Below are positions 4,701 to 21,443 of a stretch of 64,000 bases of DNA, piece by piece. The number at the start of each line of letters is the position of its first letter. Within the stretch, counting starts at the first letter, position 1. The notes under the pieces are model-generated. The model was not told where the DNA came from. It saw nothing but the letters and a program-made list of their open reading frames with translations, and did not search any database. This DNA is from a virus: positions 1-64,000 of IMG/VR virus record IMGVR_UViG_3300013111_000325; one strand, written 5' to 3'. Made by a program: the position numbers and the translations under genes.

Positions 4701-4726
4701 TTTTTCTTGTACATTAAGTTATAGTT

Positions 4727-4763: not shown

Positions 4764-4782
4764 GTATGAAAAACTTGGTGAT

Positions 4783-4847
4783 CCCAAACAAAAATACCCC
4801 CTCCAAAATCCGGATGGAAAAATCACCCAAAAAGTCGGCTTAAAAAT
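4783..4847 (+). repeat. 65-bp dispersed A-tract repeat, copy 1
   Basis: Aligns ungapped with 20836-20900, 52/65 identical by manual count. Confidence 0.85.
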
Positions 4848-5565
4848 GATATTTGTAATTGGTAATGGTGCCTCACGAAAAAATGTAAATCTAAACATTT
4901 TAAAACAACATGGTAAAGTTATTGGATGCAATGCTCTTTACAGAGATTTTGCTCCTGATCATTTGTTCGCAAACGACTCAATCATATTACATGAAATTTT
5001 ATCGAGTGATTATCCCAAACATCATGAAGTTTTTTTACTAAAAGGAGAAATACAATTTTTATCAGAAGATTTATATTTCAATATTAAAATGGGTCTCTCT
5101 AATATTACAGAGAATGAAAAAAATAATTCGACAGAATTTATTGTTCACGGAATGAATGATAGTGAACCATATCTTACATGGCTACCTCGTGGTCATAAAC
5201 TAAAAGAAACGTCTTGGGTAGAAACTGATGATATTCTAATATACAATACAGGATTTAACGCATGTAGATTAGCATGTGAGTTATATCCTGATGAAGATAT
5301 TTACATGATAGGTTTTGATATCTTTGGTAAGAGGAACAATTTGTATGATGGTACATACGGATATCACGATCCAGAAAGAGAACATTATGAAGAGCAGGGA
5401 TGGGTAGTTATTTTTAATCAATTACCATCAATATATCCGAATATAAATATAAGAAGAGTTATAGATTATGGACCAGAACTTGAAAACATACAAAGTATTA
5501 CTTACGAAGAATTATGTCAACATTCTCAAATCAACCTGACAACTTTAATTACTTCAACCCAGTAG
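4846..5565 (+). CDS. DUF115/MptE- or sialyltransferase-like fold protein (putative sugar transferase)
   Basis: FVIGNGASR, GCNALYRD and IYMIGFD motifs; probable start is ATG 4846 rather than 4762. Confidence 0.6.
   Translation: MIFVIGNGASRKNVNLNILKQHGKVIGCNALYRDFAPDHLFANDSIILHEILSSDYPKHHEVFLLKGEIQFLSEDLYFNIKMGLSNITENEKNNSTEFIVHGMNDSEPYLTWLPRGHKLKETSWVETDDILIYNTGFNACRLACELYPDEDIYMIGFDIFGKRNNLYDGTYGYHDPEREHYEEQGWVVIFNQLPSIYPNINIRRVIDYGPELENIQSITYEELCQHSQINLTTLITSTQ
5442..5449 (+). promoter_or_regulatory. Late promoter TATAAATA upstream of gp3
   Basis: Exact consensus about 65 nt before the gp3 start, inside the upstream ORF. Confidence 0.6.
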
Positions 5566-6053
5566 GGTTCAAATTTGAAGTAGATAAACTTCCAAATGTT
5601 AATTTTTTCTGTCAATCTGCTACACTACCTGGACTCACACTAGGAGAAGCAACTCTACCAAACCCATTTAGAGATATACCAACACCAGGTGATAAAATAT
5701 TATTTGAGGAATTAACAATTAGATTTATTGTTGATGAAGAACTACAAAATTGGCTTGAAATGAAAGAGTGGATATTTGGATTAGGATATCCAAACCGTCA
5801 AGAAGAATATGTTAAATTAGCAAAAGAAAATTCAGGTATAAAACCAAAAGGAAACAAATACTCAGAAGGTGTTCTTATGATTTTGACCAGTCATAAAAAT
5901 GCACAAATCAAAGTTACTTTTCAAGATCTATGGCCAGTGACTTTATCTGGTATACAAATGGATTCTTCTGTAACTGAAGTAGATTATATTACCGCAGATG
6001 CCACATTTGCGTACACAATATATAATGTAGAACGATTAATTGGAGAACATTAA
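5514..6053 (+). CDS. gp3: Tail completion / tail tube terminator protein gp3
   Basis: NFFCQSATLPG and FIVDEELQNWLE motifs; synteny gp23-gp3-uvsY. Confidence 0.9.
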   Translation: MSTFSNQPDNFNYFNPVGFKFEVDKLPNVNFFCQSATLPGLTLGEATLPNPFRDIPTPGDKILFEELTIRFIVDEELQNWLEMKEWIFGLGYPNRQEEYVKLAKENSGIKPKGNKYSEGVLMILTSHKNAQIKVTFQDLWPVTLSGIQMDSSVTEVDYITADATFAYTIYNVERLIGEH

Positions 6054-6065
6054 TTATGAGGTTTG

Positions 6066-6506
6066 ATGAAATTAGAAGAAATACAAGAATCATGGTCCAG
6101 TGACAGTCAAATTGATGATACAGAATTAGATAATGAATCTCTCAAAATTCCTGAATTACATCACAAATATTTTAGAATATTTTCAGATGAAAAACTCAAA
6201 CTTGTGCGAATGTATTCAAAGCAAAAAGAGTTACGCAGACTAAAATGGTTGTATTACACAGGAAAACTTGATCAAGAAACACTAGAAAATTTAGAATGGC
6301 ATGTGTTTGAACTTGACATAAAAAAGAACCGAAGTGATTTAGAAATGTTTATAGAATCCGACAAAGATATTCTAGAATTAGTAGAAAAAATATCATATCA
6401 AAAAGAAAAAATAGATTATTTAGAATCAATTATTAAAACATTAAATACACGAGGGTTTCAAATTAAGAACGCAATTGATTGGAAACGCTTTACTATGGGG
6501 ACTTGA
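6066..6506 (+). CDS. uvsY: Recombination mediator UvsY
   Basis: ESLKIPELHHKY, YYTGK and RGFQIKNAIDWKRF motifs. Confidence 0.93.
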   Translation: MKLEEIQESWSSDSQIDDTELDNESLKIPELHHKYFRIFSDEKLKLVRMYSKQKELRRLKWLYYTGKLDQETLENLEWHVFELDIKKNRSDLEMFIESDKDILELVEKISYQKEKIDYLESIIKTLNTRGFQIKNAIDWKRFTMGT

Positions 6507-7550
6507 ATGTATGATATATTGATAATGACAGGATCATCATTAGATCCTGCTGATGGTGGTACAATGGGTGGTACTGAAAGACAAATTCTTTCCGTTGCCG
6601 AATCATTGGCACACGAAGGTTTAGATGTTGCAATAGTACATTCTATTACAGATGGTACTGATAAAGTTATTAATGGAGTAAAACATTTGAATACCTATAG
6701 ACATTATTATGATTATTCTAAAGTAAGATTGATGGCAAATCATTTTGGATATTCTGGTAATTTTCACAGAAACTATACTATGAGTAATGTTCATGTACCT
6801 CCAATGTCACCTATTGAAATGAATTGTGCAGAAAAAACATATTGTTGGTTTCACAACTGGTTTCATCTTTCTAATAATGATTATCCTAGAATTTTTAATT
6901 CTAAAGCGGTAGCAAAATATGTTTATGAACAAAATCCTTTTAGTCACATGGTAAAAAAATTACCTGATGATAAAGTAATTTACTATATGATTCCTAAAGG
7001 ACTAGTCGTACAGCCACAAGAAAAAAGACAGGATTATTTGTTCTGGATGAGTGCTTTCGGTAAAGGCATGAAAGAAGCAATTTTAATGTATATTTCTTTG
7101 TTTGAGAGAGGCTTGACTAAAAGACCTTTCCACATTGCAATACCACCGCAAAGAGACAGAAAAGATGTAGAAGTAGTAGAAAAAATGTTAATAGATGTGA
7201 ATAAGAATGGATATCCTATAAGATTTTTTGGTGAGATGAAGTATGCTGATGCATTGACTAAATTAAGTAAAGCCGCCTGTCTTTTTCGACCTGGATTACC
7301 TCAAGAGACATTTGGACTTGTTTACTTAGAAGCAAATCAATTAGGTGTTCCTGTTCTCACATATAAGGGTGATGCAGGAGAAGAAATTTTACAAGATAAA
7401 CACAATATGTTAATAGATAAACATCACAAACTACAAGACATATCGAACTGGTTAATAGATATAGACGAGCAAAAAACAACAGTAGACATGAGCAAATTTG
7501 ATCCAGATAGAATAAAGAAACAGTGGATTAAATTGATAGAAAATGCATAA
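6507..7550 (+). CDS. Glycosyltransferase (GT-B, family 4-like)
   Basis: MGGTERQ N-terminal motif; ETFGLVYLEANQLGVPVL (E-x7-E) motif. Confidence 0.85.
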   Translation: MYDILIMTGSSLDPADGGTMGGTERQILSVAESLAHEGLDVAIVHSITDGTDKVINGVKHLNTYRHYYDYSKVRLMANHFGYSGNFHRNYTMSNVHVPPMSPIEMNCAEKTYCWFHNWFHLSNNDYPRIFNSKAVAKYVYEQNPFSHMVKKLPDDKVIYYMIPKGLVVQPQEKRQDYLFWMSAFGKGMKEAILMYISLFERGLTKRPFHIAIPPQRDRKDVEVVEKMLIDVNKNGYPIRFFGEMKYADALTKLSKAACLFRPGLPQETFGLVYLEANQLGVPVLTYKGDAGEEILQDKHNMLIDKHHKLQDISNWLIDIDEQKTTVDMSKFDPDRIKKQWIKLIENA

Positions 7551-9430
7551 TGCTATACGAACATGATACACTGCTCATAGACAAAAAGAATGAAGTGTTC
7601 ATGACGGTGCAAGCCGAACCTGGACTCGCAAGAGAATTGAGTGATTTTTTTACATTCTTTGTTCCAGGATATCGTTTCATGCCATCATATCGAAATAAGA
7701 TATGGGATGGTAAGATACGACTTTATAATCTACAAAACAAGTATCTTTATAGTGGTCTCATAGACTATGTTGAGAAGTTTGCTTCAGAACGTGAATATAA
7801 GATAGACTACAAAACAAATCCAAAAAACGTAAATGGTTATAATGAGAATGACTATGAAAGACTTGTGCGTTCTCTCAATCTTGAAATAGAACCACGAGAT
7901 TATCAGAGAGATGCATTTCTACATTCAATCAATAATGAACGTGCATTGCTACTCTCACCAACCGCATCTGGTAAATCTCTTATCATATATTTGTTGCTAC
8001 GGCACTATCAAATGAGATTGACAAATTTTAAGGCAATTGTTATAGTACCTACTACATCTCTCGTGGCACAGATGAATTCTGATTTTGCAGACTATGCAAA
8101 GAAAGATCGTTGGAAAGTTGCAGAAAATACACACATGATTTATTCAGGTCATGATAAAGTATCTGACAAACCTATATTCATATCAACTTGGCAATCACTT
8201 TATAAAATGCCTCTCAGTTATTTTTCAGATTTTGATGTAATTATAGGAGATGAATGTTTATCACCTGATACTGATATTATAATGAAAGACGGATCGTTTA
8301 AAAAAATAAAAGATATTTGTGTTGGTGATTATGTAAAAACATACAATGAAATATCAAAAGAAATAGAAAACAAACCTGTATTGAAAGTCCATAAAAATAT
8401 ATCAATAAAAGAAAAAATGTATGAAATAACATTGGATGGAATTAATAAAATTCAAATTACAGGTAATCATAAAGTCCTATTAACCAATGGAGTATGGAAA
8501 CGGGCTGATAGTCTTAAAATAGGAGATCGTATAAAAGGTTCAATAGTTACCTCAATAGTAGAATGTGCTCCTACTGATGAAGTCTATAATTTACACATTG
8601 AAGATAATCACAACTATTTCGCTAATGGTATTGTAGTATCAAATTGTCACCAATTTAAAGCGAAATCTCTGACTGCAATTATGGAGAAGGCGGTCAATAC
8701 CAAATATCGTTTTGGTACAACTGGAACACTTGACGGCACACAAATACACCGTCTTGCATTGGAAGGATTATTTGGACCTGTTTATAAAGTCACGACAACA
8801 AAGAAACTGATTGACAACAAGACACTATCACAGTTTGAGATCAAAGCATTGGTCCTGCAATATTCAGATGAGACATGTAAAGCACTCAAAGGAGCAAATT
8901 ATCAAGAAGAAATAGATTTTCTTGTATCAAATGAGAAACGAAACAACTTTATACGCAATTTAGCACTCAGTCTAAATACTAATACATTGATATTATTTCA
9001 ACTGGTTGAGAAACACGGTAGAATTCTATATAAGTTAATTAAGGATAAAACGAATGAACGACCAGTCTTTTTCGTCTATGGAGGAACCGACACAAACGAC
9101 CGAGAGCAAATTAGAGGAATCGTTGAACGAGAGTCCAATGCCATTATTGTTGCGAGTTACGGCACTTTTTCTACTGGCATCAATATTACTAATCTTCATA
9201 ATGTCATTTTTGCTTCCCCATCTAAATCTCGCATAAGAAATTTACAAAGTATAGGAAGAGGATTGAGAAAGAATGAACAAAAAAATATTGCGATATTATA
9301 TGATGTTGCCGATGATCTATCTTATAAGTCTCATAAAAACTACACTCTTAACCATTTCATTGAACGTATCAAAATATATAATGAAGAACAATTTGAATAC
9401 AAAATTCTTACAATACCAATCGGAGAATGA
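7550..9430 (+). CDS. uvsW: UvsW RNA-DNA/DNA helicase, intein-containing
   Basis: SPTASGKS Walker A; DE[intein]CH motif II; LQSIGRGLR motif VI. Confidence 0.96.
   Translation: MLYEHDTLLIDKKNEVFMTVQAEPGLARELSDFFTFFVPGYRFMPSYRNKIWDGKIRLYNLQNKYLYSGLIDYVEKFASEREYKIDYKTNPKNVNGYNENDYERLVRSLNLEIEPRDYQRDAFLHSINNERALLLSPTASGKSLIIYLLLRHYQMRLTNFKAIVIVPTTSLVAQMNSDFADYAKKDRWKVAENTHMIYSGHDKVSDKPIFISTWQSLYKMPLSYFSDFDVIIGDECLSPDTDIIMKDGSFKKIKDICVGDYVKTYNEISKEIENKPVLKVHKNISIKEKMYEITLDGINKIQITGNHKVLLTNGVWKRADSLKIGDRIKGSIVTSIVECAPTDEVYNLHIEDNHNYFANGIVVSNCHQFKAKSLTAIMEKAVNTKYRFGTTGTLDGTQIHRLALEGLFGPVYKVTTTKKLIDNKTLSQFEIKALVLQYSDETCKALKGANYQEEIDFLVSNEKRNNFIRNLALSLNTNTLILFQLVEKHGRILYKLIKDKTNERPVFFVYGGTDTNDREQIRGIVERESNAIIVASYGTFSTGINITNLHNVIFASPSKSRIRNLQSIGRGLRKNEQKNIAILYDVADDLSYKSHKNYTLNHFIERIKIYNEEQFEYKILTIPIGE
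8255..8644 (+). mobile_element. Mini-intein (130 aa, no homing endonuclease) in UvsW motif II
   Basis: Starts CLSPDT; block B ITGNH; ends VYNLHIEDNHNYFANGIVVSN followed by Cys+1; removal restores GDECHQFKAK. Confidence 0.95.
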
Positions 9431-9431
9431 T

Positions 9432-9764
9432 ATGTCTACGTATAAATACATTCATCTTACAAACGGTGATCACATCTTTACAGAATTACATTTTCCGAAA
9501 GAAAAAACGGGGTTCTTTAAATTAAAACGCCCATTAAAATTAACAATGCAAGAAGATGAAAATCACGTACACTTTGGCTTTATGCCGTGGATACCATTCT
9601 CTGATGATGAAGAAGTGCCATTACAAGCGAAATCAGTAATTACAATGGCAAATCTAAATGATGAGTATAAAGAAATGTATATAAGAGGACTAGAACATCA
9701 TACAAAAATGGAAGATGTAATAGATTTTGAAGACTCTGAAATACCTAATGTACTTTTAAATTAA
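9432..9764 (+). CDS. Conserved small protein downstream of uvsW (Sm-like fold suspected)
   Basis: GGAG RBS before ATG 9432; LTNGDHI...FMPWIPFS pattern; position between uvsW and gp55. Confidence 0.6.
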   Translation: MSTYKYIHLTNGDHIFTELHFPKEKTGFFKLKRPLKLTMQEDENHVHFGFMPWIPFSDDEEVPLQAKSVITMANLNDEYKEMYIRGLEHHTKMEDVIDFEDSEIPNVLLN

Positions 9765-9786
9765 TCATATCAAACGGGACACACCT

Positions 9787-9815
9787 ATAATAACACATTG
9801 TCAAGCATTTGTCAA
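9787..9815 (-). promoter_or_regulatory. Antisense sigma70-type promoter
   Basis: Minus strand reads TTGACA-17 bp-TATTAT with a TG extension. Confidence 0.6.
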
Positions 9816-9819
9816 GCCC

Positions 9820-9847
9820 TTGACTTTTTCATATAGTATGTTATACT
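9820..9847 (+). promoter_or_regulatory. sigma70-type promoter for gp55
   Basis: TTGACT-16 bp-TATACT with TG extension; AAGGAG RBS downstream. Confidence 0.7.
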
Positions 9848-9871
9848 GTACAATAATGAAAGGAGTTACTA

Positions 9872-10426
9872 ATGGCTAAAACAAGACACTACGTAAACAA
9901 TGCAGATTTTTTAGAAGCCCTTATTAAATATAAAGCGGACATTGAAATTGCAGAAAAAAATGAAGAAGAGAAGCCTCTACTACCTGATTATATTGGAGAG
10001 TGTTTTCTATTAATAGCACAACGATTATCTTACAGACCAAACTTCATCAACTATGTATTTAAGGATGATATGATATCCGATGGCATAGAAAATTGTTTAC
10101 AGTATGTGCATAATTTTAATCCTGAAAAGTCACAAAATCCTTTTGCATATTTTACACAGATAATTTATTATGCCTTTATTCGTAGAATTCAAAAAGAGAA
10201 AAAACATTTGTATGTGAAGTATAAAGAGATGGAGCGAATGCACTATCTTGAAGATAATGTTGAACATGGACAATATGATACCTCAGGAGAACTCATGACA
10301 GAGGTTGCATCTAATGACATGAGAATAATGATAGGTGATTTTATTGCTGAATTTGAACAGAAAAAAGCGGCCAAAAGAAAACCTAGAAAAAATGTTGCAG
10401 AATATGCAGGAATATACTCTATATAG
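9872..10426 (+). CDS. gp55: Late-transcription sigma factor gp55
   Basis: HYVNNADFL, DMISDGIENC and NPFAYFTQIIYYAFIRRIQKEKK motifs. Confidence 0.97.
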   Translation: MAKTRHYVNNADFLEALIKYKADIEIAEKNEEEKPLLPDYIGECFLLIAQRLSYRPNFINYVFKDDMISDGIENCLQYVHNFNPEKSQNPFAYFTQIIYYAFIRRIQKEKKHLYVKYKEMERMHYLEDNVEHGQYDTSGELMTEVASNDMRIMIGDFIAEFEQKKAAKRKPRKNVAEYAGIYSI

Positions 10427-10454
10427 AACTTCTCTTGTGAGAGTATTAGGAGAA

Positions 10455-10901
10455 ATGAAAATAGCACACATTTATATAGGTGAAGGTCTTCCTAAAAAAG
10501 AAGTTCAATCTGCTACTTTAACAACTACGGGTTTTGTTGGAGATAAGCAACGATGGAAAAGACATGGGCCTCCTTTGCGAGATATTGTAATATGGAGTTT
10601 AACTCGTATTGAAGAATTAATGAATGAGGGACATCCTATTTTTCCTGGCGCATGTGGGGAAAATTTAGTTATTGAAGGAAAGGAATATTTTAAATTGAAA
10701 AAGGATGATATTTTAACCATAGGAGATTCTATATTAAAACTAACTTTTCCTGCCGATCCTTGTAATCAAATTAAAGAATTTTTTACTTCTAATATGAATC
10801 TGGTGCATGATAAAATACCTAGATGGTGTTGTGATGTACTTTATGCAGATGAAAAAGAGATGTGTGTAAATGATCAAATAACACTACTTCATAAAAAATG
10901 A
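10455..10901 (+). CDS. MOSC-domain (YiiM-like) protein
   Basis: AGGAG RBS before ATG 10455; GLPK, GFVGD, PGACGENL and PADPC motifs. Confidence 0.75.
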   Translation: MKIAHIYIGEGLPKKEVQSATLTTTGFVGDKQRWKRHGPPLRDIVIWSLTRIEELMNEGHPIFPGACGENLVIEGKEYFKLKKDDILTIGDSILKLTFPADPCNQIKEFFTSNMNLVHDKIPRWCCDVLYADEKEMCVNDQITLLHKK

Positions 10902-10908
10902 AAATAAT

Positions 10909-11988
10909 ATGAAAATAGCATTAATTACGGATACCCACTGGGGTGCTAGGAATGACAATAAAATATTTGCTGATTATTTTTCTAGATTTTATGACAATAT
11001 ATTTTTTCCTTATATCGATGACCATAATATTAAAACATGCATACATTTAGGTGATGTCGTTGATAGAAGAAAATACATTAACTTTAAGACCGCAAATGAT
11101 TTGAGAGAAAATTTTGTAGAACGATTATGGGAGATGAATGTTGACACACATATGATTGTCGGCAATCATGATATCTACTACAAGAATACAAATCAGGTCA
11201 ATTCTCTTCATGAACTTTTTAGCACCGCAGATCATATTCTTGAACCTTGGATCTATGCAAGCCCACGAGAATTTGATTTTGATGGTACTAAAATTCTCAT
11301 GATGCCGTGGATTAATTCAGATAATTATACAGAATGCATGGAAGCAATCAATAATTCTTCTGCACAAATTATGATGGGACATCTTGAAATCAATGGTTTT
11401 GAGATGCATCAACATGGTCAAATATGTGATGCAGGTTTTAGTGCAGACATGTTTTCTAAATTTGATTTAGTTTACAGTGGGCATTTTCATCACAAATCTA
11501 CACAAGGTGGTATCACATATCTTGGTAATCCTTATGAAATAACTTGGTCTGATTTTGGAGATGCAAGAGGTTTTCATGTGTTTGATACGAATACACGAGA
11601 ACTGGAATTTATACAAAATCCGTATCACATGTTTTATAAGATTTATTACGATGATAACAAAGAAACATTTGAGACTATTAAAGAAAGAGATTACGGTATT
11701 TACACAGGAACAATTGTTAAGGTTATTGTTACTGAAAAGAACAATCCGTATTGGTTTGACACAATGCTTGATGAGTTATACAAAGCGGATGTCGCAGATG
11801 TTTCTGTGGTTGAGAATGTTGATCTTGAATTTGAAAATGATGAATCTGTAGTTGATGAAGCCGAAGATACTTTGACTATTTTGAGTAATTACATTGATGG
11901 TTTGAATATTCAAAAGAATAAAAAAGAACTTGACAATCTTATAAGAACACTTTACAATGAGGCATTGGACTATGAAATCACAGCCTGA
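10909..11988 (+). CDS. gp47: Recombination nuclease gp47 (Mre11-like)
   Basis: DTHWG, HLGDVVDRRK, GNHD and SGHFH metallophosphoesterase motifs. Confidence 0.96.
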   Translation: MKIALITDTHWGARNDNKIFADYFSRFYDNIFFPYIDDHNIKTCIHLGDVVDRRKYINFKTANDLRENFVERLWEMNVDTHMIVGNHDIYYKNTNQVNSLHELFSTADHILEPWIYASPREFDFDGTKILMMPWINSDNYTECMEAINNSSAQIMMGHLEINGFEMHQHGQICDAGFSADMFSKFDLVYSGHFHHKSTQGGITYLGNPYEITWSDFGDARGFHVFDTNTRELEFIQNPYHMFYKIYYDDNKETFETIKERDYGIYTGTIVKVIVTEKNNPYWFDTMLDELYKADVADVSVVENVDLEFENDESVVDEAEDTLTILSNYIDGLNIQKNKKELDNLIRTLYNEALDYEITA

Positions 11989-12178
11989 AGAAGAAATGGA
12001 AACTATTACTTTGGATATATCCGATGATGTATTTATGAAACTCGCCATGCAAGCACATGAGAGAGATGTGACACTCAATACGCATATTATTGATGTGTTA
12101 AAAGATAAATTGAAAGATTTGGATTATCAATTTGAGAATGGAACAAAACCTCAACTCCTTACTGAAAAACAAACTTGA
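11972..12178 (+). CDS. Hypothetical small protein (ribbon-helix-helix-like)
   Basis: ITLDISDDVFMKLAMQAHERDVTLN pattern; a TTGACA-17-TACAAT promoter at 11930-11958 precedes it. Confidence 0.55.
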   Translation: MKSQPEEEMETITLDISDDVFMKLAMQAHERDVTLNTHIIDVLKDKLKDLDYQFENGTKPQLLTEKQT

Positions 12179-12326
12179 TGAATTAGAGGTTCTTGAAAAA
12201 GAACTGCATGATTGCAAATCAGTAGTTAAAGGTAAAATGCATATGCGAGATATCGTAAGTGGATATGTATATTCTAAAAAATCAGAAATTATTGAGATAT
12301 TGAAATCTAATTATGATAAACTTTAA
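12132..12326 (+). CDS. Hypothetical protein
   Basis: ORF fills the gap before gp46. Confidence 0.45.
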   Translation: MRMEQNLNSLLKNKLDELEVLEKELHDCKSVVKGKMHMRDIVSGYVYSKKSEIIEILKSNYDKL

Positions 12327-12332
12327 TAAGAT

Positions 12333-14045
12333 ATGATTTTATTTTCGCAGGTGAGATGGAAAAATCTGCTATCAACAGGTCAGGTTTTTACAGAGGTTGA
12401 TCTAAAAAGAAATCCAACAACTCTGATTGTTGGTGAAAATGGTTCTGGAAAATCTACGATACTTGATGCACTCACATTCAGTCTGTTCGGTAAAGCATTT
12501 CGTAACATAAAAAAACCACAACTCATCAATTCAATTAATGAACAGAATTGTATTACTGAAGTAGAATTTTCTATAGGTAAAAAACATTTTCTTGTTCGTA
12601 GAGGTATCAGGCCAAATATTTTTGAGATTGAAGTTGATGGTGTCATGATAAATCAAGATTCTAAAGCCAGAGACTATCAAGAGCATCTTGAAAAAAATAT
12701 TCTCAAACTCAATTACAAATCTTTTACACAAATCGTAATACTTGGTAGTTCATCTTTTGTTCCTTTTATGCAATTGAGGACAAATGACCGCCGAGTAATT
12801 ATTGAAGACTTACTTGATATTGAGGTGTTTTCTACAATGAATTTACTTCTCAAAAATAGAGTATCAGAACTGAAGCAAGATATAAATCTCAATGAACTTG
12901 AAAGATCTAAAACTGAAAATGCGATAGAGTTACAAGAAGATTATATCTCAAAGATGAAGCAGAACAACATACAATTAATTTCTGCTAATCAAGAAAAAAT
13001 AGATAAGTCAAATAAAGATATTGCAACATATAATTTACAGATTGCAGATATCGAAACACGGATAGAAGCATTGTATAAACTGGTCGAAGATTTCGACCAG
13101 CAACAAAATAAGCAGAGAACGTTAGAAAAATATGAAGATGATATAAACAAAAACCTCAAAAAGGTAGAAAAAGAAATAGAATTCTATCGTCAAAATACAG
13201 ATTGTCCAGTATGTAAACAGACAATTGATGAGGATCATAGAGAATGTGAAATAAAAGAAAAGCGAAAAAAGAAAACAGAACTTGATGATGCGGTTACAAA
13301 AATTGATGAAGAATTACAATTATCAATTAAGTTAATTCAGGAGATGACCGAAACACAAAAATCGATTACAGATTTTCAGAGTGAGATTACAAAACATAAT
13401 GCATCTATTTCCGCAATCAATCAGTACATACAAAAGGTCAATGAAGAGATACAGTCATTAAATGAGAAAGGTGCAGATGTCACAGATGCATCAAAGAAAC
13501 TCAAAAAATTAAAGACTGATCAAAAAAATCTCTTGTCATTGAAAGAGCAATATAGTAATATGTCTTCAATATATGACGTTGCGAGTGTGCTTCTCAAAGA
13601 CGGTGGCATCAAAACAACCATCATAAAAAAATACTTGCCGATTATGAATAAATTAATTAACAAGTATTTGGCATCTATGGATTTTTATGTATCGTTTAAT
13701 CTCGATGAGAACTTTAACGAGACAATTAAATCTAGATTTCGTGATGAATTCACCTATGCATCATTTAGTGAAGGTGAAAAAATGAGAATCGACTTGGCCT
13801 TGCTTTTCACTTGGAGAGCAATTGCCAAGTTGAAAAATAGTATGAGTACGAATCTACTCGTTCTTGATGAAGTGTTTGATAGTTCATTGGATGAAGATGG
13901 TACAAGTGACTTTCTCAAAATACTTCATTCGCTTGGTAATGAATCGAATGTTTTTATAATTAGTCACAAGGGTGAAGTCTTGTACGACAAATTTAAAAGC
14001 ATGATTAAATTTGAAAAACATAAAAACTTTAGCAGGATAGTATGA
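12333..14045 (+). CDS. gp46: Recombination ATPase gp46 (Rad50-like)
   Basis: GENGSGKS Walker A; CPVC zinc hook; FSEGEKMRIDL signature; LVLDEVFDSSLD. Confidence 0.97.
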   Translation: MILFSQVRWKNLLSTGQVFTEVDLKRNPTTLIVGENGSGKSTILDALTFSLFGKAFRNIKKPQLINSINEQNCITEVEFSIGKKHFLVRRGIRPNIFEIEVDGVMINQDSKARDYQEHLEKNILKLNYKSFTQIVILGSSSFVPFMQLRTNDRRVIIEDLLDIEVFSTMNLLLKNRVSELKQDINLNELERSKTENAIELQEDYISKMKQNNIQLISANQEKIDKSNKDIATYNLQIADIETRIEALYKLVEDFDQQQNKQRTLEKYEDDINKNLKKVEKEIEFYRQNTDCPVCKQTIDEDHRECEIKEKRKKKTELDDAVTKIDEELQLSIKLIQEMTETQKSITDFQSEITKHNASISAINQYIQKVNEEIQSLNEKGADVTDASKKLKKLKTDQKNLLSLKEQYSNMSSIYDVASVLLKDGGIKTTIIKKYLPIMNKLINKYLASMDFYVSFNLDENFNETIKSRFRDEFTYASFSEGEKMRIDLALLFTWRAIAKLKNSMSTNLLVLDEVFDSSLDEDGTSDFLKILHSLGNESNVFIISHKGEVLYDKFKSMIKFEKHKNFSRIV

Positions 14046-14575
14046 CTGAAAATAAAGTAGAAGTTCATCCTCTTGTAACAGAAGATCACGAACTAATCAC
14101 AACTAAACTTGATGAGTTTAATTTTGATAGAGATGATGCAGAAAAACTTGAAGACACATTAATCAACTGCATGGATTTTTATCGTGGTCTTGGACTGTCA
14201 GCAAATCAATTAGGAATAAATGCAAGAGTATTTGCTATGGTGCATGAAGAACAACCAATGGTGATGTTTAATCCAAAAGTTGTGTCGGCAACAGAAGAAA
14301 AATATCTCATGAAAGAAGGATGTCTCACATGGTTCGGTCTTTTTCCAAAAGTATTAAGACCTCAAGGAGTAACAATAAACTGGAAAGATAAAGAAGGTCA
14401 AGAATTTTCAGGTAGTTTCATTGATTTATCCGCTAGAATTATACTTCATGAATATGATCACCTAAATGGTTATACTTTCTTTGATAGAGCAAAACCAATG
14501 CACATGTCACAGGCCAAAAAACGAAGAAAAATATATATCAGAAAGGCTAAACGACAAGCGAAAGAAATAGTATAA
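14042..14575 (+). CDS. def: Peptide deformylase
   Basis: GLGLSANQLG, EGCL and HEYDHLNG motifs. Confidence 0.93.
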   Translation: MTENKVEVHPLVTEDHELITTKLDEFNFDRDDAEKLEDTLINCMDFYRGLGLSANQLGINARVFAMVHEEQPMVMFNPKVVSATEEKYLMKEGCLTWFGLFPKVLRPQGVTINWKDKEGQEFSGSFIDLSARIILHEYDHLNGYTFFDRAKPMHMSQAKKRRKIYIRKAKRQAKEIV

Positions 14576-14595
14576 TTATAATTAAGGGAGTCAAA

Positions 14596-14835
14596 ATGAA
14601 AAATAATAGACTTTGTTATGATATATCCGTGCAAGAATGTATTGAAAAATGTCCTCAAGAACTAGTCCATTGTAGTGTAAGATTATTACGTAAAACTGTA
14701 ATAGGTATGGGTAATGAACCTTTAGCAGATTTAATTGAATGTGCTTTAGATGAACATTGGAGAGAAGCATTTCAGACAGGACTTGATTATAATTCCAAAT
14801 CTTATGAGAACTTTTTAGATAAAAGGTTAGTATGA
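14596..14835 (+). CDS. Hypothetical protein
   Basis: GGGAG RBS; tight packing with neighbours. Confidence 0.55.
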   Translation: MKNNRLCYDISVQECIEKCPQELVHCSVRLLRKTVIGMGNEPLADLIECALDEHWREAFQTGLDYNSKSYENFLDKRLV

Positions 14836-15023
14836 AACATAAAGAAGATTATGTTTCTTTTGGTCCTAATTATGTCACTAGTCAAGTACGGCACATGAAA
14901 CAAAAGATGCTTAAAATTATGAATCGTGTTCTTGAATCACAAAGAAAATATCATGACAGTACAATTTGTAATAATTGTTTAAATCATATACGTTATGAAT
15001 GTGAAAGGCTGAGTAATTCATAA
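14832..15023 (+). CDS. Hypothetical protein
   Basis: Overlapping start/stop with neighbours. Confidence 0.5.
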   Translation: MKHKEDYVSFGPNYVTSQVRHMKQKMLKIMNRVLESQRKYHDSTICNNCLNHIRYECERLSNS

Positions 15024-15172
15024 TGATGAATTGGACTAAGGTTCACCTAGAAACTATGAATGTTTTGCAATTGAAAGAATTGAAAAGATATGTTGATGAA
15101 ATCCTTAAACGAAAAATTGAACAATCCAAACGGCTCCCAGATGAAGACTTGGCAGAAAGGCATAGACCTTGA
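15023..15172 (+). CDS. Small hypothetical protein (49 aa, not in the ORF track)
   Basis: TAATG coupling to the upstream gene; MMNWTKVHLETMNVLQLKELKRYVDEILKRK... Confidence 0.45.
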   Translation: MMNWTKVHLETMNVLQLKELKRYVDEILKRKIEQSKRLPDEDLAERHRP

Positions 15173-16280
15173 TACTCTTTTAGCACACACCAAAAGATTT
15201 GAGAACTACAATAAGTATAGTTGCTCACCTTTTTCAGAAATGAAAAAGAATGATATTGCCGAACATCTGAGCAATGGTACGGTAGTCAATCTTAAAGGTT
15301 CTACATTCACTATTCAGGAATGTAAAGTTCGTTCTCCTATTTACATGTATCAAAAAATACCGATAGGGTATCGTGAACCTGGTGACCTTAAAATTGACAG
15401 ATTTGCTTTTACAGATTATTCACATGAAAGTCAGCAAGAGTTTTACGATTATATTATACGCAATCATAGAACTGATGTTTGGATATGTTCCTGGGCCGAA
15501 GATACTGCAACAAATGATATTTTTGATACGCAATTAGGTTTGCAGAAAGTTGGCACAAAGGTTACTACATTTGGTGAGTTAATTGTGTATTGGTTTTTAC
15601 CATACTCAAAAGATATGTTTGGTGAAAGCAGAAAACATCCAAAAGTGCCTGACACAGAATACCATAATCTTGTAAAATTAAAATTGCCTACTGATATCTC
15701 ACATCTTATATCTGCAATACAAGAGAAAATTTCTAAACTTCCTGTATTTACTAACCATTATTCAAACTATAATAAACGCAAATCTTGGTCAGCAGTATCT
15801 TTAAGAGGGCACAGTCCGAAACCAGAGTTTATTACAGACCCAGCAGAAATGAGTAAGAAATGGAAAGAGGAAAATAAAGATGTGTTATTTGAAATGCAAG
15901 ATACATATCTATATGATGACTTTCCTGAAGTGAGAGAATTGGTGAAGATGCTCAAAGCAGAAGAGATACATCGTGTGCGATTTATGAAATTAAATGCTGG
16001 AGATGGTGAATTAGACCGACATACTGATTTGGTTGATCCGAAAGGTGGATTGGCAGATGGTAAGTTAATGCGAATACATTTTCCTATCATCACAAGTGAC
16101 AAAGTTTTGTTTGAGTCCTGGGACTTGACGGGGCATATACACTGTGCTAATATGAGGGTTAATGAAGCATGGATGTTGGACACTAGAAAACCTCATCGTG
16201 CAGTAAATGAAGGAACAGAAGATAGAATACATTTAGTAATTGACATTGTTTCAAATGAACGATCTAGAACATTATTATGA
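15141..16280 (+). CDS. Two-domain protein: unknown (GNAT-like?) N-terminus plus 2OG-Fe(II) oxygenase of the Asp/Asn beta-hydroxylase-like family
   Basis: RVRFMKL, HTD (HxD), RIHFPI, KPHRAVN and RIHLVID motifs; probable start MKTWQKG at 15141. Confidence 0.75.
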   Translation: MKTWQKGIDLDTLLAHTKRFENYNKYSCSPFSEMKKNDIAEHLSNGTVVNLKGSTFTIQECKVRSPIYMYQKIPIGYREPGDLKIDRFAFTDYSHESQQEFYDYIIRNHRTDVWICSWAEDTATNDIFDTQLGLQKVGTKVTTFGELIVYWFLPYSKDMFGESRKHPKVPDTEYHNLVKLKLPTDISHLISAIQEKISKLPVFTNHYSNYNKRKSWSAVSLRGHSPKPEFITDPAEMSKKWKEENKDVLFEMQDTYLYDDFPEVRELVKMLKAEEIHRVRFMKLNAGDGELDRHTDLVDPKGGLADGKLMRIHFPIITSDKVLFESWDLTGHIHCANMRVNEAWMLDTRKPHRAVNEGTEDRIHLVIDIVSNERSRTLL

Positions 16281-16888
16281 ACATATTTTTTCTTGACAAA
16301 GATCCTGTATTTGCGGCACGTTATCATTGTGATAAACATGTGCCCAAGATGATTGTTGAGTATGCTCAACTTATGAGTACCGCTCACCGATTAATTGATG
16401 GTGAACCATATGAAGCAAAAAACAAGCGAGGTCACAAACTGACTAGATGGAGATTATCAGATGACCGAGAACATAAATTATATTTTGCCTCCCATTTTAA
16501 GCATCCTTCTAATATTTGGGTTCGGTCTAGCACTCAACATTATGATTGGTTGTATGAGTTATTTAATGCTTTGTGTGCTGAATTCACGTTGCGATATGGA
16601 AAGTTTCATAAGACAGACCTTGACTTACGTGAATATATTAAAAGAAGACCTGACAATCTTCAAGACAATGGATGGTCAGATCCACCACTCGCAATGCCAG
16701 AACAGTACAAATTAAACAAAGCAATTCCTTCTTATCGTAATTTCTATGCTACTGAAAAACGTAGATTTGCGACATGGAAAACGGAAAAACCTCACTGGTA
16801 TGATTGGTGGTGTATGATGAATGACACTTTTAATTCTAAATCAATAGAGGAACATGTACACGTTAAAGGTGAAGGATGGATTGATTAA
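16277..16888 (+). CDS. Pyrimidine-dimer DNA glycosylase (DenV)-related protein
   Basis: MNIFFLD...HCDKHVPKMIVEYAQLMSTAH and HPSNIWVR motifs. Confidence 0.75.
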   Translation: MNIFFLDKDPVFAARYHCDKHVPKMIVEYAQLMSTAHRLIDGEPYEAKNKRGHKLTRWRLSDDREHKLYFASHFKHPSNIWVRSSTQHYDWLYELFNALCAEFTLRYGKFHKTDLDLREYIKRRPDNLQDNGWSDPPLAMPEQYKLNKAIPSYRNFYATEKRRFATWKTEKPHWYDWWCMMNDTFNSKSIEEHVHVKGEGWID

Positions 16889-17916
16889 TGAAAAACCATT
16901 TTGTTATTGTCGCTGGCTATCTTGATACTGATGAAAAAACCAAGATGGCCGTTGACTTTATTGAGAAGTTACGAAAAGTAGAAAATATATCAATTTGTTA
17001 TTCTACTCACCACTCCAATATTCCTCAAAAATTAATAGAACTTACAGATTTTATTGTTTACAATAAGTATAACCCAATTCTTAACTGGGACATATGTTCT
17101 GAATATACCGAGAGATTTGGTTGTTCAATACAAGAGCATCCTGCTCTTGACAAAGAAGATATATTTTTTCCTCAACCATATCATGGCTACGCACATTTAA
17201 TTTCTCTATGTGACGCCGTAGCAATAGGAACAAATACAGGTTATAAAACTTTTTCTTTTATGAATTTTGATGTTGTAGATTATTGTATTGATCAATTACC
17301 ACTGCATATTAAAGAGATAAAAAAGAATAAGGTTGATGCTATTTTTTATCCGTATCTAATACAAAATATTAAAGCAACTGTAGGTAGCACAGAATTTTTT
17401 ACTTTTAGTCTAAAATTTGCTCAAGAAATTTATAAGTATAGAGATTTTAGGCATTATCAAACAATTCATGATCCAGTTCTAGAAAGATTTGTAAATCTTG
17501 TATGTAAATCAAAAGGATTAAAATGGATTCTTATTGAAAATAAATTCTCTGAAAATGGCACAATAGGAAAATTAAATTTTGGTAAAGGTGATATGTCAAA
17601 AGTTCCATTTTGGGTCCCATACGAAACTATTTGGGATGGTGATAAAAGATTTGAGATATGTATCATACCATTTAAGACAAAAAATAAATATCAACTTGTA
17701 TTTGGTATAAATTCTATGTTTTCGGAATATGATGAAGACATAAAAGAGATTAGAATATTTGCAGATGATAAACAATTAAAAAATGATTGGGAATTACACA
17801 CAATACAAAAACCTTGTAGATTAAAAATCTCTTATAAAAATAAAATTACAAGAGATTTTGTTCTCAATGACGAAAGACACTTTGGCAAAGTTAGAATGAA
17901 AGTGAGAAAACCATGA
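16888..17916 (+). CDS. Hypothetical protein, possibly glycosyltransferase-related
   Basis: Long AT-rich ORF; only weak GT-A-like features. Confidence 0.45.
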   Translation: MKNHFVIVAGYLDTDEKTKMAVDFIEKLRKVENISICYSTHHSNIPQKLIELTDFIVYNKYNPILNWDICSEYTERFGCSIQEHPALDKEDIFFPQPYHGYAHLISLCDAVAIGTNTGYKTFSFMNFDVVDYCIDQLPLHIKEIKKNKVDAIFYPYLIQNIKATVGSTEFFTFSLKFAQEIYKYRDFRHYQTIHDPVLERFVNLVCKSKGLKWILIENKFSENGTIGKLNFGKGDMSKVPFWVPYETIWDGDKRFEICIIPFKTKNKYQLVFGINSMFSEYDEDIKEIRIFADDKQLKNDWELHTIQKPCRLKISYKNKITRDFVLNDERHFGKVRMKVRKP

Positions 17917-18701
17917 CTACATTATGGAAAGAAACAGAAGAAGAATACCTTGAACTTGTAAAAGATTGGACAGACCCATATCCTACTCCACAACTTATTG
18001 AGTATGATGGCGTTCTTGTAGTAAGAGATGATTTGCTCAATGCAGGTTCAAAAGTTCGTTTCGTAGATTATCTTATTGGTTCAAATAAAAACGTAAATGA
18101 ATGGGTATTTGGTTCATGTCCTGCTACAGGATATGCACAAATAAGTTTACCTATTGCATGTAAACGTCATAACAAAAAAGCAGTATTGTTTATGGCAAAA
18201 CGTAATAAAAAAAATTTTACTGAGTATCAAAAACGTGGCATAGAATTAGGTGTTGATTATCATTGGGTAGAAAATGGTATGTTGACAGTCACACAAAAAC
18301 GTGCAAAAGACTATGCCGCCAAATCATCTGATAGGATGGTTTTGCCTTTAGGACTTGAACATCCGACAGTTCTTGGGTCAATAATCAAAGTTGCTAGAAG
18401 CCTACCAGTTACACCAAATGAAGTATGGACTGTAGGTTCAAGCGGAACATTAAATAGAGGCTTGCAACTTGCTTGGCCTGATGCTACAATACATGTTGTA
18501 AGTGTGGGGCACACCATGAATAAACGAGAGATAGGTAGAGCAATTTATCATCGTAGTAAATACAGGTTTGATCAACCTGTAAAAGAGAATGAAATGCCAC
18601 CTTTTCCTTCCGCTCCTACATATGATGCAAAAGCATGGAAGTTTATTCAAGAACTTTCAGATAAAAAAGGTACAACATTACTTTGGAATGTCGGAGCATA
18701 A
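17913..18701 (+). CDS. PLP-dependent enzyme, fold type II (ACC deaminase / D-cysteine desulfhydrase-like)
   Basis: VVRDDLLNAGSKVR (PLP lysine), VGSSGT phosphate loop and PTYDAKAW motifs. Confidence 0.8.
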   Translation: MTTLWKETEEEYLELVKDWTDPYPTPQLIEYDGVLVVRDDLLNAGSKVRFVDYLIGSNKNVNEWVFGSCPATGYAQISLPIACKRHNKKAVLFMAKRNKKNFTEYQKRGIELGVDYHWVENGMLTVTQKRAKDYAAKSSDRMVLPLGLEHPTVLGSIIKVARSLPVTPNEVWTVGSSGTLNRGLQLAWPDATIHVVSVGHTMNKREIGRAIYHRSKYRFDQPVKENEMPPFPSAPTYDAKAWKFIQELSDKKGTTLLWNVGA

Positions 18702-19234
18702 TGGCACACACAGAACAATTAGAATATGTAAAATCTTTAAAATTAGTATTTCCTCATTATTTCAGATATAGAAAAGTTTTAGAAGTTGGTAGTTTAGATA
18801 TTAATGGTACCGTAAAAGTATTTTTTGATAATTGCGATTATACAGGTTTAGATCTAGGTGAAGGTAAAGGTGTCGATCTGATTGAAGAAGGTCAAAATTA
18901 TGATGCACCAGATGAAACTTATGATACAGTTCTTTCCACTGAATGCTTTGAACATAATCCTTACTGGAAAGAAACCTTTTTGAATATGATCAGGTTATGT
19001 AAAAAGAATGGTCTCGTATTTTTCACCTGTGCAACCGATGGTAATCCTGAGCATGGTACAGTAAATAGACTTCCAGGTGATGCCCCATTAGTTATTGAAA
19101 AGGGCTGGAATTATTATAAAAATTTGAATAAACACGATTTCAATATTTTCCCATTAGATGATTTATTCTTGACTTTTAGTTTTTCTAATAATATAATAGC
19201 ACATGATCTTTATTTCTTTGGTATAAAAAAATGA
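18701..19234 (+). CDS. Class I SAM-dependent methyltransferase
   Basis: VLEVGSLDING and YDTVLSTECFEH motifs; TAATG coupling. Confidence 0.85.
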   Translation: MAHTEQLEYVKSLKLVFPHYFRYRKVLEVGSLDINGTVKVFFDNCDYTGLDLGEGKGVDLIEEGQNYDAPDETYDTVLSTECFEHNPYWKETFLNMIRLCKKNGLVFFTCATDGNPEHGTVNRLPGDAPLVIEKGWNYYKNLNKHDFNIFPLDDLFLTFSFSNNIIAHDLYFFGIKK

Positions 19235-20835
19235 AACATTTTTATGAACGTAACGATTATGTTTTAAATCATGAAGTCAACAAAACATTTGAAGAAATTC
19301 TTTGGATGTCAGATGATGAATTTCGTCAATGGTTGACTGATATGAGAAAGACAATTGCATATGCTTGGGATGAACTTGGATTGCCACCAAGAGTTGGTTG
19401 GAATGAAAAAGATATCATAGACCAATTCAATAAGATGTCATCGTTTCCTGTTCATGAGATGGACAAAGGTGATAACATAGTTCGTAATACATCTGTCATC
19501 GGTAATGCTTGTAATCAGTTTTTTCCGACAATGATGAAGACTAGAATTAATTATTCTAAAAATGATGATGGTCTTTCAATTTACGACCATTTTGTAGATG
19601 ATAAACTATCTGAAAAAGTTTACAAGTATTCACATCGTCACTTCAAGCGTGATAGTTTTTATGAATATTCACAAACTGTTCCGACAAATGCTGAGACTAA
19701 AGATTTTTTGATATCAGCAAAAACTGGTAAAGAATGGATTCAAAATTTTGAAAAAAGTTTTAGAAATAAAAAAGTAACAATAAGAAAAAAAGGTAAAGAG
19801 GGTGCAGAAAAAGGTGTTGTATTTCAAGAAGATGTTGAATATGATTATTGGATCGCACCTCATTCAGAAGATACAGAATATACTGGTCATAATAAAGATC
19901 TTGTAGGAGTAAAATGGTGTACACTTACAAAAAATGAAATTCACGAATTGAATATTCCTGAAAAATGTTTAGTCAATGCTAAACTTGATGAAAATGATTT
20001 ATTTCGTATTCGTTTGTTCAAGTTTGGTCAGAGAATATTTCCTGTAGGTTTTAAGGCATTTCGTATTTCATGGTGTCAGTATGCAGTAAACTTTCCACCT
20101 CTTACCGCTAAATATTTGTATGAGAGATACACTGAACACATTAAAGAGCAGGATGTTATCAACATTTATGATCCTTCTAGCGGTTGGGGCGGTCGTATTC
20201 TTGGGGCTATGGCTGTCCGTGATGACCGTAATATCCACTATATTGGGACCGACCCAAACACGGATCATACGATTGAAGAACTGGGTATTACGAAGTATGA
20301 GTACCTTGCAAACTTTTTTAACGAAAATAAATATGGATCTCTTTTCCCGCACAACAATACCTATGAAATTTATCAACTCGGTTCGGAAGAAATCAGAAAT
20401 AATAAGCAGTTTCAAACGTACAGAGGAAAACTTGATATCGTTTTCACAAGTCCTCCATATTTTGCAAAAGAAGCCTATTCAGAAGACGAAGAACAATCTT
20501 ACAAAAAGTTCCCACAATACCAGTCTTGGGTAGACGGTTTTTTGAGACCAACTCTTGAAACATGTATTGAGTACCTAAGACCAAACAGATATTTGCTTTG
20601 GAATATTGCTGATGCAAAGTTTGGTCCTGACATGTTACCTCTTGAAGAAGACAGTAACAAGATATTGCGTGAGCATGGTATGGAGTTTGTTGAAGTTGTG
20701 AAGATGACATTGGCTTGGATGCCAGGCGGTAATCGTATTGGTGAGGATGGTAAGCCAAGTTACAAGAATGCAGTACAAGTTGAAGGTAAGTGGTTTAAAT
20801 ACGAACCGATATTTGTCTGGAAAAAACCAGCGTAA
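19231..20835 (+). CDS. DNA amino-methyltransferase-like protein (N6A/N4C type)
   Basis: YDPSSGWGGR SAM-binding motif and FTSPPYF catalytic motif. Confidence 0.8.
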   Translation: MKHFYERNDYVLNHEVNKTFEEILWMSDDEFRQWLTDMRKTIAYAWDELGLPPRVGWNEKDIIDQFNKMSSFPVHEMDKGDNIVRNTSVIGNACNQFFPTMMKTRINYSKNDDGLSIYDHFVDDKLSEKVYKYSHRHFKRDSFYEYSQTVPTNAETKDFLISAKTGKEWIQNFEKSFRNKKVTIRKKGKEGAEKGVVFQEDVEYDYWIAPHSEDTEYTGHNKDLVGVKWCTLTKNEIHELNIPEKCLVNAKLDENDLFRIRLFKFGQRIFPVGFKAFRISWCQYAVNFPPLTAKYLYERYTEHIKEQDVINIYDPSSGWGGRILGAMAVRDDRNIHYIGTDPNTDHTIEELGITKYEYLANFFNENKYGSLFPHNNTYEIYQLGSEEIRNNKQFQTYRGKLDIVFTSPPYFAKEAYSEDEEQSYKKFPQYQSWVDGFLRPTLETCIEYLRPNRYLLWNIADAKFGPDMLPLEEDSNKILREHGMEFVEVVKMTLAWMPGGNRIGEDGKPSYKNAVQVEGKWFKYEPIFVWKKPA

Positions 20836-20900
20836 CCCAAACAAAAATGACCCTCCGAGAATCCGGAGGGAAAAAATGCCGAAAAAGTTGGCTCAAAAAT
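20836..20900 (+). repeat. 65-bp dispersed A-tract repeat, copy 2
   Basis: Ungapped match to 4783-4847; contains the inverted repeat CCCTCCG-N6-CGGAGGG. Confidence 0.85.
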
Positions 20901-20910
20901 AAATAGAACA

Positions 20911-21348
20911 ATGATTAAAAATCTTTATTCTGCAAAACATGATGATAAATGGATTAAAATTATTGATAATATTGACTTTGATGTAAAACAATATCAAAAT
21001 TTTTATAATTATGTAGGTTATCAATTTTTACCAAAATTATACGACTATTCTATTATAGAGGGTAACAAAGCAAAATTTGTTATGGCTTATTTAGATGGAA
21101 AACAAGTAAGCATGAAAAATATTAGGGCATTATTTGATTTTGTGTGTCATACAATATTTCCTAGTTTCATGCAATGGACAATTTTAAATCGAAATCATAT
21201 GATTCGTGATAAAAAGGAAAATTTTTTTTATTATCACAACGACCTCAAACCTGAAAATTTTTTAGTGATTAAAAATAAATTTATGTTAATAGATATTGAT
21301 GCCATGTGTCTTACTAACATAAATGATAAAATATTTAAAATATATTAA
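20911..21348 (+). CDS. Minimal protein-kinase-like phosphotransferase
   Basis: HNDLKPENF catalytic loop and LIDID metal-binding motif. Confidence 0.6.
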   Translation: MIKNLYSAKHDDKWIKIIDNIDFDVKQYQNFYNYVGYQFLPKLYDYSIIEGNKAKFVMAYLDGKQVSMKNIRALFDFVCHTIFPSFMQWTILNRNHMIRDKKENFFYYHNDLKPENFLVIKNKFMLIDIDAMCLTNINDKIFKIY

Positions 21349-21356
21349 TTTTTTAA

Positions 21357-21432: not shown

Positions 21433-21443
21433 CAAAAAAACCC

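Follow-up and report, generated by a model that had tools for sequence, protein, structure and literature searches.

A 65-nt untranslated element at two loci of a marine T4-like myovirus and the exchange of sequence between its copies

Introduction

Why should a stretch of 65 untranslated nucleotides occur twice, 16 kb apart, in the genome of a marine T4-like myovirus? The question is raised by the IMG/VR record IMGVR_UViG_3300013111_000325, a viral contig of 116,897 bp which is estimated to be ∼52% complete and of which the first 64,000 nucleotides (called the window in the following) were analysed. Judged by the major capsid protein gp23, its closest named relatives are the Pelagibacter phages HTVC008M and Mosig and the cyanomyoviruses, with ∼70–75% nucleotide identity, and nearly all genes of the window are found on the plus strand. 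An earlier note, made from the letters alone, had described the repeat and considered it to be either a curved protein-binding site acting at the level of the DNA or a landing site for inserted genes.

Our analysis points to a different reading. We give a probability of about one half to the explanation that the element is an untranslated leader or spacer of which short-homology recombination placed a copy at a second site, that it evolves nearly neutrally and that any activity it has is weak and exerted at the RNA level.

The repeat and its two copies

The copies are located at positions 4783–4847 (copy 1) and 20836–20900 (copy 2) and align without gaps with 52 of 65 positions identical, as originally reported. 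When copy 1 was compared with its own contig by BLAST, copy 2 was recovered with an E value of 8.6e-12. A longer alignment covers 79 nt at 76% identity, and at the second site the additional 14 nt are the native 3′ end of a methyltransferase-like open reading frame (ORF). Copy 1 (locus 1) is placed between the terminator of gene gp23 and an ORF of 239 amino acids, and copy 2 (locus 2) between the methyltransferase-like ORF and a tRNA-Gly gene. Both copies are intergenic and have the same orientation, along the direction of transcription. No additional members came to light: a two-sequence nhmmer profile (--max) found no third copy in the 116.9-kb contig, the next match having an E value of 13, a covariance model run over the contig found none either, and in the relatives the element occurs at the same two loci only. 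An Rfam search of both loci (E values up to 1) matched the tRNA alone.

The sequence features that had been ascribed to the repeat are present. Regular A-runs are found in both copies, the centres of runs of at least four A being spaced by 14.5, 13.5, 11, and 13 nt in copy 1 and by 28.5, 10.5, and 13 nt in copy 2, and each copy contains the palindrome TCCGGA. Neither copy holds a sigma-70-type site or the late-promoter motif TATAAATA, in line with the statement that the repeat matches neither promoter class. A clear hairpin had been noticed in copy 2 only, and this is correct, although copy 2 actually forms two, hairpin 1 at 20851–20870 and hairpin 2 at 20878–20892. The predicted folding energy of copy 2 is −19.2 kcal/mol (z −4.18), compared to −5.1 kcal/mol (z +0.51) for copy 1. 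Hairpin 1 of copy 2 is the only module of A-tract, hairpin, and A-tract that was found in the contig. At every occurrence the element lies on the transcribed strand and in RNA that is free of ribosomes, and C outnumbers G in all of the 16 variants described below, though the overall C/G ratio of the plus strand is 0.72.

An origin from a duplicated coding fragment, which had been named as a finding that would speak against a signal, is not borne out, as each frame of both strands is interrupted in at least one of the 16 variants and the variable columns are distributed over the three codon phases as 10/11/12, that is without a third-position bias. A mini-ORF following GGAGGG in the locus-2 copies was also considered and rejected, since it is not conserved at locus 1 and has no coding signal. 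Inspection by eye against consensus sequences gave nothing convincing for a tRNA relic, for a miniature inverted-repeat transposable element with inverted ends or target duplications, or for sigma-54, sigma-28, and ECF promoters and sites of IHF or CRP.

Distribution in relatives and alternative alleles

In other genomes the element is confined to the same two loci. We collected 16 distinct variants, 11 from locus 1 and five from locus 2, coming from 20 other records, to which a mis-binned duplicate of locus 1 is to be added, and all of them align without gaps. The search patterns by which eight of the 16 were detected prescribe AAAAAT, CC, ATCCGGA, and AAAA. Relatives anchored on proteins are free of this sequence bias and comprise 17 IMG/VR loci anchored on the 239-amino-acid ORF and 80 loci anchored on the methyltransferase. 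The element is present at the same place in nine of the former and absent from the other eight; among the latter it is present in one (L025), though in nine of the 80 the sequence stops before the gene is complete. Three pattern scans of IMG/VR with different anchors yielded no copy outside the two loci, a covariance model searched over 478 kb of related loci found the two copies of the window only, and no match to the element was found among GenBank phages.

In metagenomes a pattern scan hit at least 119 loci; among the matches listed ten are real, all at one of the two loci, and the remaining ones listed are mostly an unrelated repeat family plus noise. One metagenome record of 43 kb carries both copies, ∼14.8 kb apart. 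The unrelated family (L150–L268) is an abundant repeat of ∼100 nt that matches the pattern by chance, is found on dozens of contigs from few samples, and has a ATCCGGAT core with GGAGTCGGA-like units on both sides. The scan of bacterial and archaeal genomes gave four matches, of which one is real and resides on a 6-kb phage contig that is apparently mis-binned. This contig (L272, 6,146 bp), part of a metagenome-assembled genome of the Nitrosopumilaceae, is identical to the window over 170 nt around copy 1, and its score equals that of copy 1 itself; almost certainly it comes from a phage and was wrongly assigned to the archaeal genome, so that it is no evidence of a host.

At both loci close relatives have something else in place of the element. 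In L009 the 239-amino-acid ORF is 93% identical and the flanks are 85–96% identical to the window; here a different and longer terminator is followed by GGAG and ATG, and this swap of terminator and element is the only difference from the window. In L028 the methyltransferase is 90% identical and a sigma-70 site (TTGACC, 17 nt, TACAAT) occupies the gap of ∼63 nt in front of the same tRNA-Gly, with the last ∼8 nt before the tRNA in common with the element-bearing form. Thus, the element and the promoter spacer of L028 fill the same gap and are alternative alleles of it.

Exchange of sequence between the copies

The two copies do not evolve independently. Over the 5′ 40 columns, copy 2 of the window is identical to the locus-1 copies of L006 and L181 (40/40) as opposed to 34/40 for the locus-2 copies of L179 and L227, whereas over the 3′ 19 columns it matches the locus-2 copies in 18 of 19 and the locus-1 copies in only 14–15 of 19 positions. 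The converse pattern is seen as well, since L179, L005, and L227 share 39 of 40 positions with copy 1 of the window. There are two allelic forms of the 5′ 40 nt, and each of them occurs at both loci, which requires at least two transfers between the loci and means that the copies are in genetic contact. Recombination of the UvsX/UvsY type needs less than 50 bp of homology according to PMC2839356, and such contact is what is expected of a phage with this type of recombination. Judged from the exchanged stretches, a link of the element to recombination holds.

Locus-1 copies are still found where the third-position identity of gp23 between genome and window is as low as 0.57–0.63, and locus-2 copies are confined to methyltransferase third-position identities of at least 0.83. 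A recombination breakpoint at the 3′ edge of the element was looked for at locus 1 and was not seen; the divergence is located inside the 239-amino-acid ORF at ∼4946–5245.

Folding and rate of change

How strongly is the element maintained? At locus 1, compared over seven genomes, 34 of 63 element columns are invariant compared to 66 of 142 four-fold sites of gp23, and at locus 2, compared over five genomes, 53 of 65 columns are invariant compared to 44 of 59 four-fold sites. From these fractions it follows that the element changes about as fast as synonymous sites. The blocks that are invariant across the variants are CAAAAAT, CC, AATCCGGA, AAAAA, and AAAAG.

All five locus-2 variants form the same two hairpins, with −17.8 to −19.2 kcal/mol and z values of −4.2 to −5.0. 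At locus 1 a strong hairpin 1 is formed by four of the ten variants that were folded; the eleventh, L181, was not folded and has the hairpin-1 sequence of L006. Hairpin 1 comes in two registers which are one base apart and each of which pairs perfectly, and this is the sole sign, a hint at most, that pairing may have been under selection in the past. Changes on both sides of a stem number six, a marginal excess over the 2.8 expected; six are reached by 19 of 500 shuffles.

Discussion

The observations could be combined as follows. In its fullest form the element would consist of two small G/C-rich stem–loops joined by linkers of five to six A. Its native home would be the gap between the gp23 terminator and the 239-amino-acid ORF, from which a copy may have moved ∼16 kb downstream through short patches of homology, replacing the promoter-bearing spacer before tRNA-Gly in a subset of close relatives. 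By ectopic gene conversion the 5′ 40 nt would still be exchanged between the copies in the phage population. The element is non-essential and evolves nearly neutrally, and any activity would be exerted by the RNA of the sense strand. At locus 2 the stem–loops would come to lie at the 3′ end of the upstream mRNA that is left when RNase P cleaves at the tRNA, a place where 3′ exonucleases are usually stopped by stem–loops. At locus 1 the element would serve as an A/C-rich, mostly unstructured leader with decaying hairpins and no Shine–Dalgarno sequence.

Several points weigh against this explanation. The near-neutral rate is equally compatible with no function at all, and a role at the RNA level is an inference. 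Hairpins are weak or absent in six of the ten folded locus-1 variants, with 0 kcal/mol for L016, and the intact hairpins at locus 2 may merely reflect youth, given how closely these variants are related. The stems show no significant covariation: 69.9% of their cells are paired compared to 69.7% after shuffling, and 246 of 500 shuffles equal the observed value. In addition, the stem cells comprise 11 G–U and 13 A–C combinations, so that G–U is no commoner. The direction of copying, from locus 1 to locus 2, is suggested by nothing else than the wider distribution of the locus-1 copies. Finally, the invariant blocks are partly due to ascertainment, because search patterns were used to find half of the variants.

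Among known systems, the promoter-early stem-loop (PeSL) cassettes of T4-type phages come closest (Arbiol et al. 2010, PMC2839356; Comeau et al. 2014, PMC4122927). Like a PeSL, the element is a short repeated intergenic motif (50–80 bp) in a T4-like genome that combines a G/C-rich stem–loop with an A/T-rich part; its copies recombine with each other through patches of less than 50 bp, as the better match across loci than within a locus illustrates; and insertions or replacements abut it, namely the 145-amino-acid ORF and the allele with the promoter spacer. On the contrary, a consensus sigma-70 early promoter is present neither in 4600–5000 nor in 20836–20900, the nearest one being found at 21444–21471. 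The hairpins are no terminators on the sense strand, since they are followed by A-runs and not by a T-run, and the sole terminator-like call is on the minus strand. Furthermore, there are two copies per genome and not many copies in hyperplastic regions, and the copies bracket core genes (gp3-like, UvsY, UvsW, gp55-like, gp47, gp46) and not ORFans. No description of the element was found in the available parts of PMC2839356, PMC7029224, PMC3037559, and PMC4122927, in a search that was not designed to prove absence. If our explanation is true, the element is a small and clean natural case of T4-like phages moving and homogenising short non-coding segments by means of very short homology, in which one copy displaced the promoter spacer of a tRNA and alleles are common to both copies across 16 kb. 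The PeSL concept would then also cover a module that has no promoter, and it would reach the uncultured marine relatives of pelagimyophages among the myoviruses. As strong selection on the element is not apparent from the data, no new mechanism is opened.

Two other systems offer partial parallels. REP sequences such as those in the malE–malF spacer of E. coli are intercistronic stem–loops which shield the upstream mRNA from 3′ exonucleases, and the element likewise has stable G/C-rich hairpins of the sense strand in an intercistronic gap, at locus 2 directly 5′ of an RNase P site. However, REP sequences have hundreds of copies and a conserved palindrome, whereas the element has two copies and its hairpins are dispensable at locus 1. 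An example of a rut site is lambda tR1 with rutA, the boxB hairpin, and rutB. The element resembles it as ∼65–80 nt of C-rich, G-poor untranslated RNA with regular C-blocks, and its 15-nt hairpin with an A-rich pentaloop (GCCGA-AAAAG-UCGGC) between C-rich parts resembles boxB. It differs in that only the locus-1 copy passes the composition test, whereas the one at locus 2 is highly structured and is followed by a tRNA whose transcription is required.

One rival of an RNA-level leader or spacer is a pure relic, that is a functionless and decaying by-product of ectopic recombination whose hairpins and A-tracts are idle at both loci. The fractions of invariant columns, the insignificant covariation with G–U and A–C equally common, and the fact that close relatives manage without the element all fit. 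Nevertheless, we regard a pure relic as rather unlikely, as an untranslated insert of ∼60 nt has remained free of insertions and deletions in 16 variants of an otherwise tightly spaced phage, as C exceeds G throughout against the trend of the strand, as both registers of hairpin 1 pair perfectly, and as small samples leave room for weak selection. Much less can be said for the curved, DNA-level site that was originally preferred, in which a protein would recognise TCCGGA flanked by A-tracts on double-stranded DNA. To its credit, none of the 16 variants, including the eight that were found without sequence patterns, deviates in AATCCGGA or in the A-runs, ATCCGGAT forms an 8-bp palindrome in copy 1, and the primary sequence is retained where hairpins are gone. 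The A-tracts, however, are out of helical phase: they are phased at ∼13 bp (resultants 0.91 and 0.87 for copies 1 and 2) and not at 10.5 bp (0.31 and 0.68), and the AA periodicity at 10.5 bp is ordinary, since 58% and 33% of the genome windows score at least as high as copies 1 and 2, respectively. A conserved DNA signal is not apparent in an element that is hardly more conserved than synonymous sites, and by our estimate eight invariant columns in a row are unremarkable at 54% invariance. TCCGGA itself shows neither enrichment nor avoidance, as each strand of the contig has it eight times, and there are just two sites, none elsewhere in the 478 kb of related DNA and neither of them in close relatives. 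We therefore judge a DNA-level site to be very improbable. The proposed landing site for inserted genes has weak support. One insertion, that of the 145-amino-acid ORF, falls exactly into the junction of element and tRNA-Gly and is confined to the window. On the other hand, the 239-amino-acid ORF follows gp23 in relatives with and without the element, no identity breakpoint is found at the element edge, and the region between the copies is made of core genes and contains no island.

The remaining alternatives give the element a role in transcription. An untranslated RNA that is rich in C, poor in G, and has a C-block every ∼13 nt over 65–78 nt matches the footprint of the Rho hexamer, and the element might be a rut-like loading site behind the gp23 terminator or a stop codon, at which Rho attenuates read-through. 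With criteria reportedly used in RhoTermPredict and by Alifano 1991 (a 78-nt window with more C than G and six C spaced 11–13 nt), locus 1 qualifies with 20 C, 10 G, and a chain of six and ranks in the top 1.3% of windows. The excess of C in all variants, the periodicity of ∼13 nt, the A+C content of copy 1 (49 of 65, joint-highest among 65-nt windows with one higher and several equal), the essentially unstructured state of six of the ten folded locus-1 variants, and the ribosome-free RNA agree with such a site. Locus 2 fails the same criteria (18 C, 15 G, a chain of four) and has its C-blocks hidden in the two hairpins, the criteria are unspecific in that 66 regions of the contig qualify, and stopping before tRNA-Gly would silence a tRNA without a promoter of its own in these genomes; we consider a Rho site improbable. 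A bolder version, to which we attach only slight credence, sees in the five C-blocks, spaced 13 nt over ∼65 nt, a dedicated loading platform on untranslated RNA for the Rho hexamer or another ring protein, with which marine T4-like phages without MotA and AsiA could time or insulate their transcription units in place of middle-mode control, the hairpin form at tRNA-Gly being an 'off' or protected state. Only if a rut-like or factor-binding reading is true would the element be of greater importance, with regard to the middle-mode regulation of MotA-less marine T4-like phages. The element might instead be a promoter of an undescribed class, for example for the middle mode of marine T4-like phages without MotA, driving the 239-amino-acid ORF and tRNA-Gly. 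It stands behind a terminator at locus 1 and fills the exact gap of the sigma-70 promoter of L028 at locus 2, and in pelagimyophages the early and middle regulators of T4 are missing and the prediction of middle and late promoters was unsuccessful (PMC7029224). The missing matches to sigma-70 and TATAAATA sites, the near-neutral evolution, the restriction to two sites per genome, and the same 239-amino-acid ORF in L009 without the element speak against a promoter, which appears to us a faint prospect. Least credible are intrinsic terminators of the minus strand that stop antisense transcription coming from the AT-rich accessory ORFs. A scan calls one at 20870–20851, with eight pairs followed by TCATTTTTGT, and the A-runs would be explained as U-tracts. 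Yet there are practically no minus-strand genes, the minus-strand ORFs of at least 100 amino acids near the loci all overlap plus-strand ORFs, the hairpins are gone in most locus-1 variants, and several stems use G–U pairs, which are A–C on the minus strand.

Surroundings of the two loci

At locus 1 the element follows the head genes: a prohead protease (1294–1938), a scaffold protein (1986–3281), and gp23 (3312–4700, plus strand; Pfam Gp23 with E 2e-139, PHROG major head protein), the stop codon of which is at 4698–4700. Directly 3′ of this stop codon and outside the repeat, 27 nt at 4701–4727 are highly conserved, with 22 of 27 columns invariant in seven genomes, which is more than at codon positions 1 and 2 of gp23. 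This stretch contains TATAGTTA immediately 5′ of the terminator hairpin, and in the distant relatives L020 and L023 a true TATAAATA is found 3′ of the gp23 stop where the window has TATAGTTA. Transcripts that start there would be without the 5′ arm of the terminator, and the region may be a late promoter which overlaps the terminator. The terminator itself, a G/C-rich hairpin followed by seven T, was read from the sequence at 4731–4763, and 33 of the 39 columns from 4728 to 4766 are invariant in seven genomes. It is followed by a locus-1-specific spacer of 19 nt (4764–4782) and by copy 1, the untranslated leader of the 239-amino-acid ORF, which has a weak mismatched hairpin at ∼4799–4817 and whose final two bases are the A and the T of the ATG at 4846. 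The accessory ORF (4846–5565, phrog_30607) has no Shine–Dalgarno sequence before this ATG. Its 3′ part contains a TATAAATA motif at 5442–5449, and the gp3-like gene (5514–6053) begins 65 nt past this motif and overlaps the ORF by 52 nt. As it has its own TATAAATA upstream, the gp3-like gene is independent of the element. The contigs assembled from RNA libraries are Logan contigs, which cannot show transcript ends or a lack of expression and may include DNA; with this reservation, their summed depth is ∼100–190 over gp22/gp23 and near 0 beyond ∼4900, and contigs of the runs X17 and X19 span 4731–4839.

At locus 2 copy 2 begins one base past the TAA (20833–20835) of the methyltransferase-like ORF (534 amino acids, 19231–20835, plus strand; Pfam N6_N4_Mtase below the family cut-off, PHROG 498/12517). 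Downstream are the 145-amino-acid ORF (20911–21348), found in this genome only, the gene for tRNA-Gly (GCC; 21357–21432), and a sigma-70-type early promoter past the tRNA (21444–21471; TTGACA, 16 nt, TATTAT), all on the plus strand. Because the element directly adjoins tRNA-Gly in four of the five locus-2 variants, the 145-amino-acid ORF is an insertion peculiar to the window; a contig of the RNA-library run X19 joins 20898 to 21355. Peptide patterns found no relatives of the ORF in IMG/VR, it has no Pfam or PHROG match, and it is unrelated to the 239-amino-acid ORF (BLASTP E 0.23). It carries the string HNDLKPEN, which resembles the catalytic loop of protein kinases, followed by IDID. In L027 and L035 the methyltransferase-like ORF is followed within ∼10–30 nt by a tRNA-Ser (TGA) in place of tRNA-Gly, which makes the site 3′ of this ORF a hot spot for the turnover of tRNAs and promoters.

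Between the copies are found genes for the gp3-like protein, UvsY, a glycosyltransferase, UvsW, a gp55-like sigma factor, a MOSC protein, gp47, and gp46 and in addition a peptide deformylase, a hydroxylase, and methyltransferases. As core genes occupy these 16 kb, the repeats do not bracket an accessory island, and a cassette flanked by the repeats is ruled out. Not far downstream of copy 2 there is a family of three early-promoter repeats on the plus strand (21435–21480, 24005–24050, and 26748–26793), in which an A-run is followed by TTGACA, a spacer of 16–17 nt and TATTATATAAATG, so that a sigma-70 −10 box is combined with a TATAAAT motif. This family is a better PeSL candidate than the 65-nt element. 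The UvsW-like helicase (7550–9430, plus strand) has UvsW_N, ResIII, and Helicase_C domains and in addition an intein-type insert, as its residues ∼235–360 match the Intein_splicing, PT-HINT, and Hint domains.

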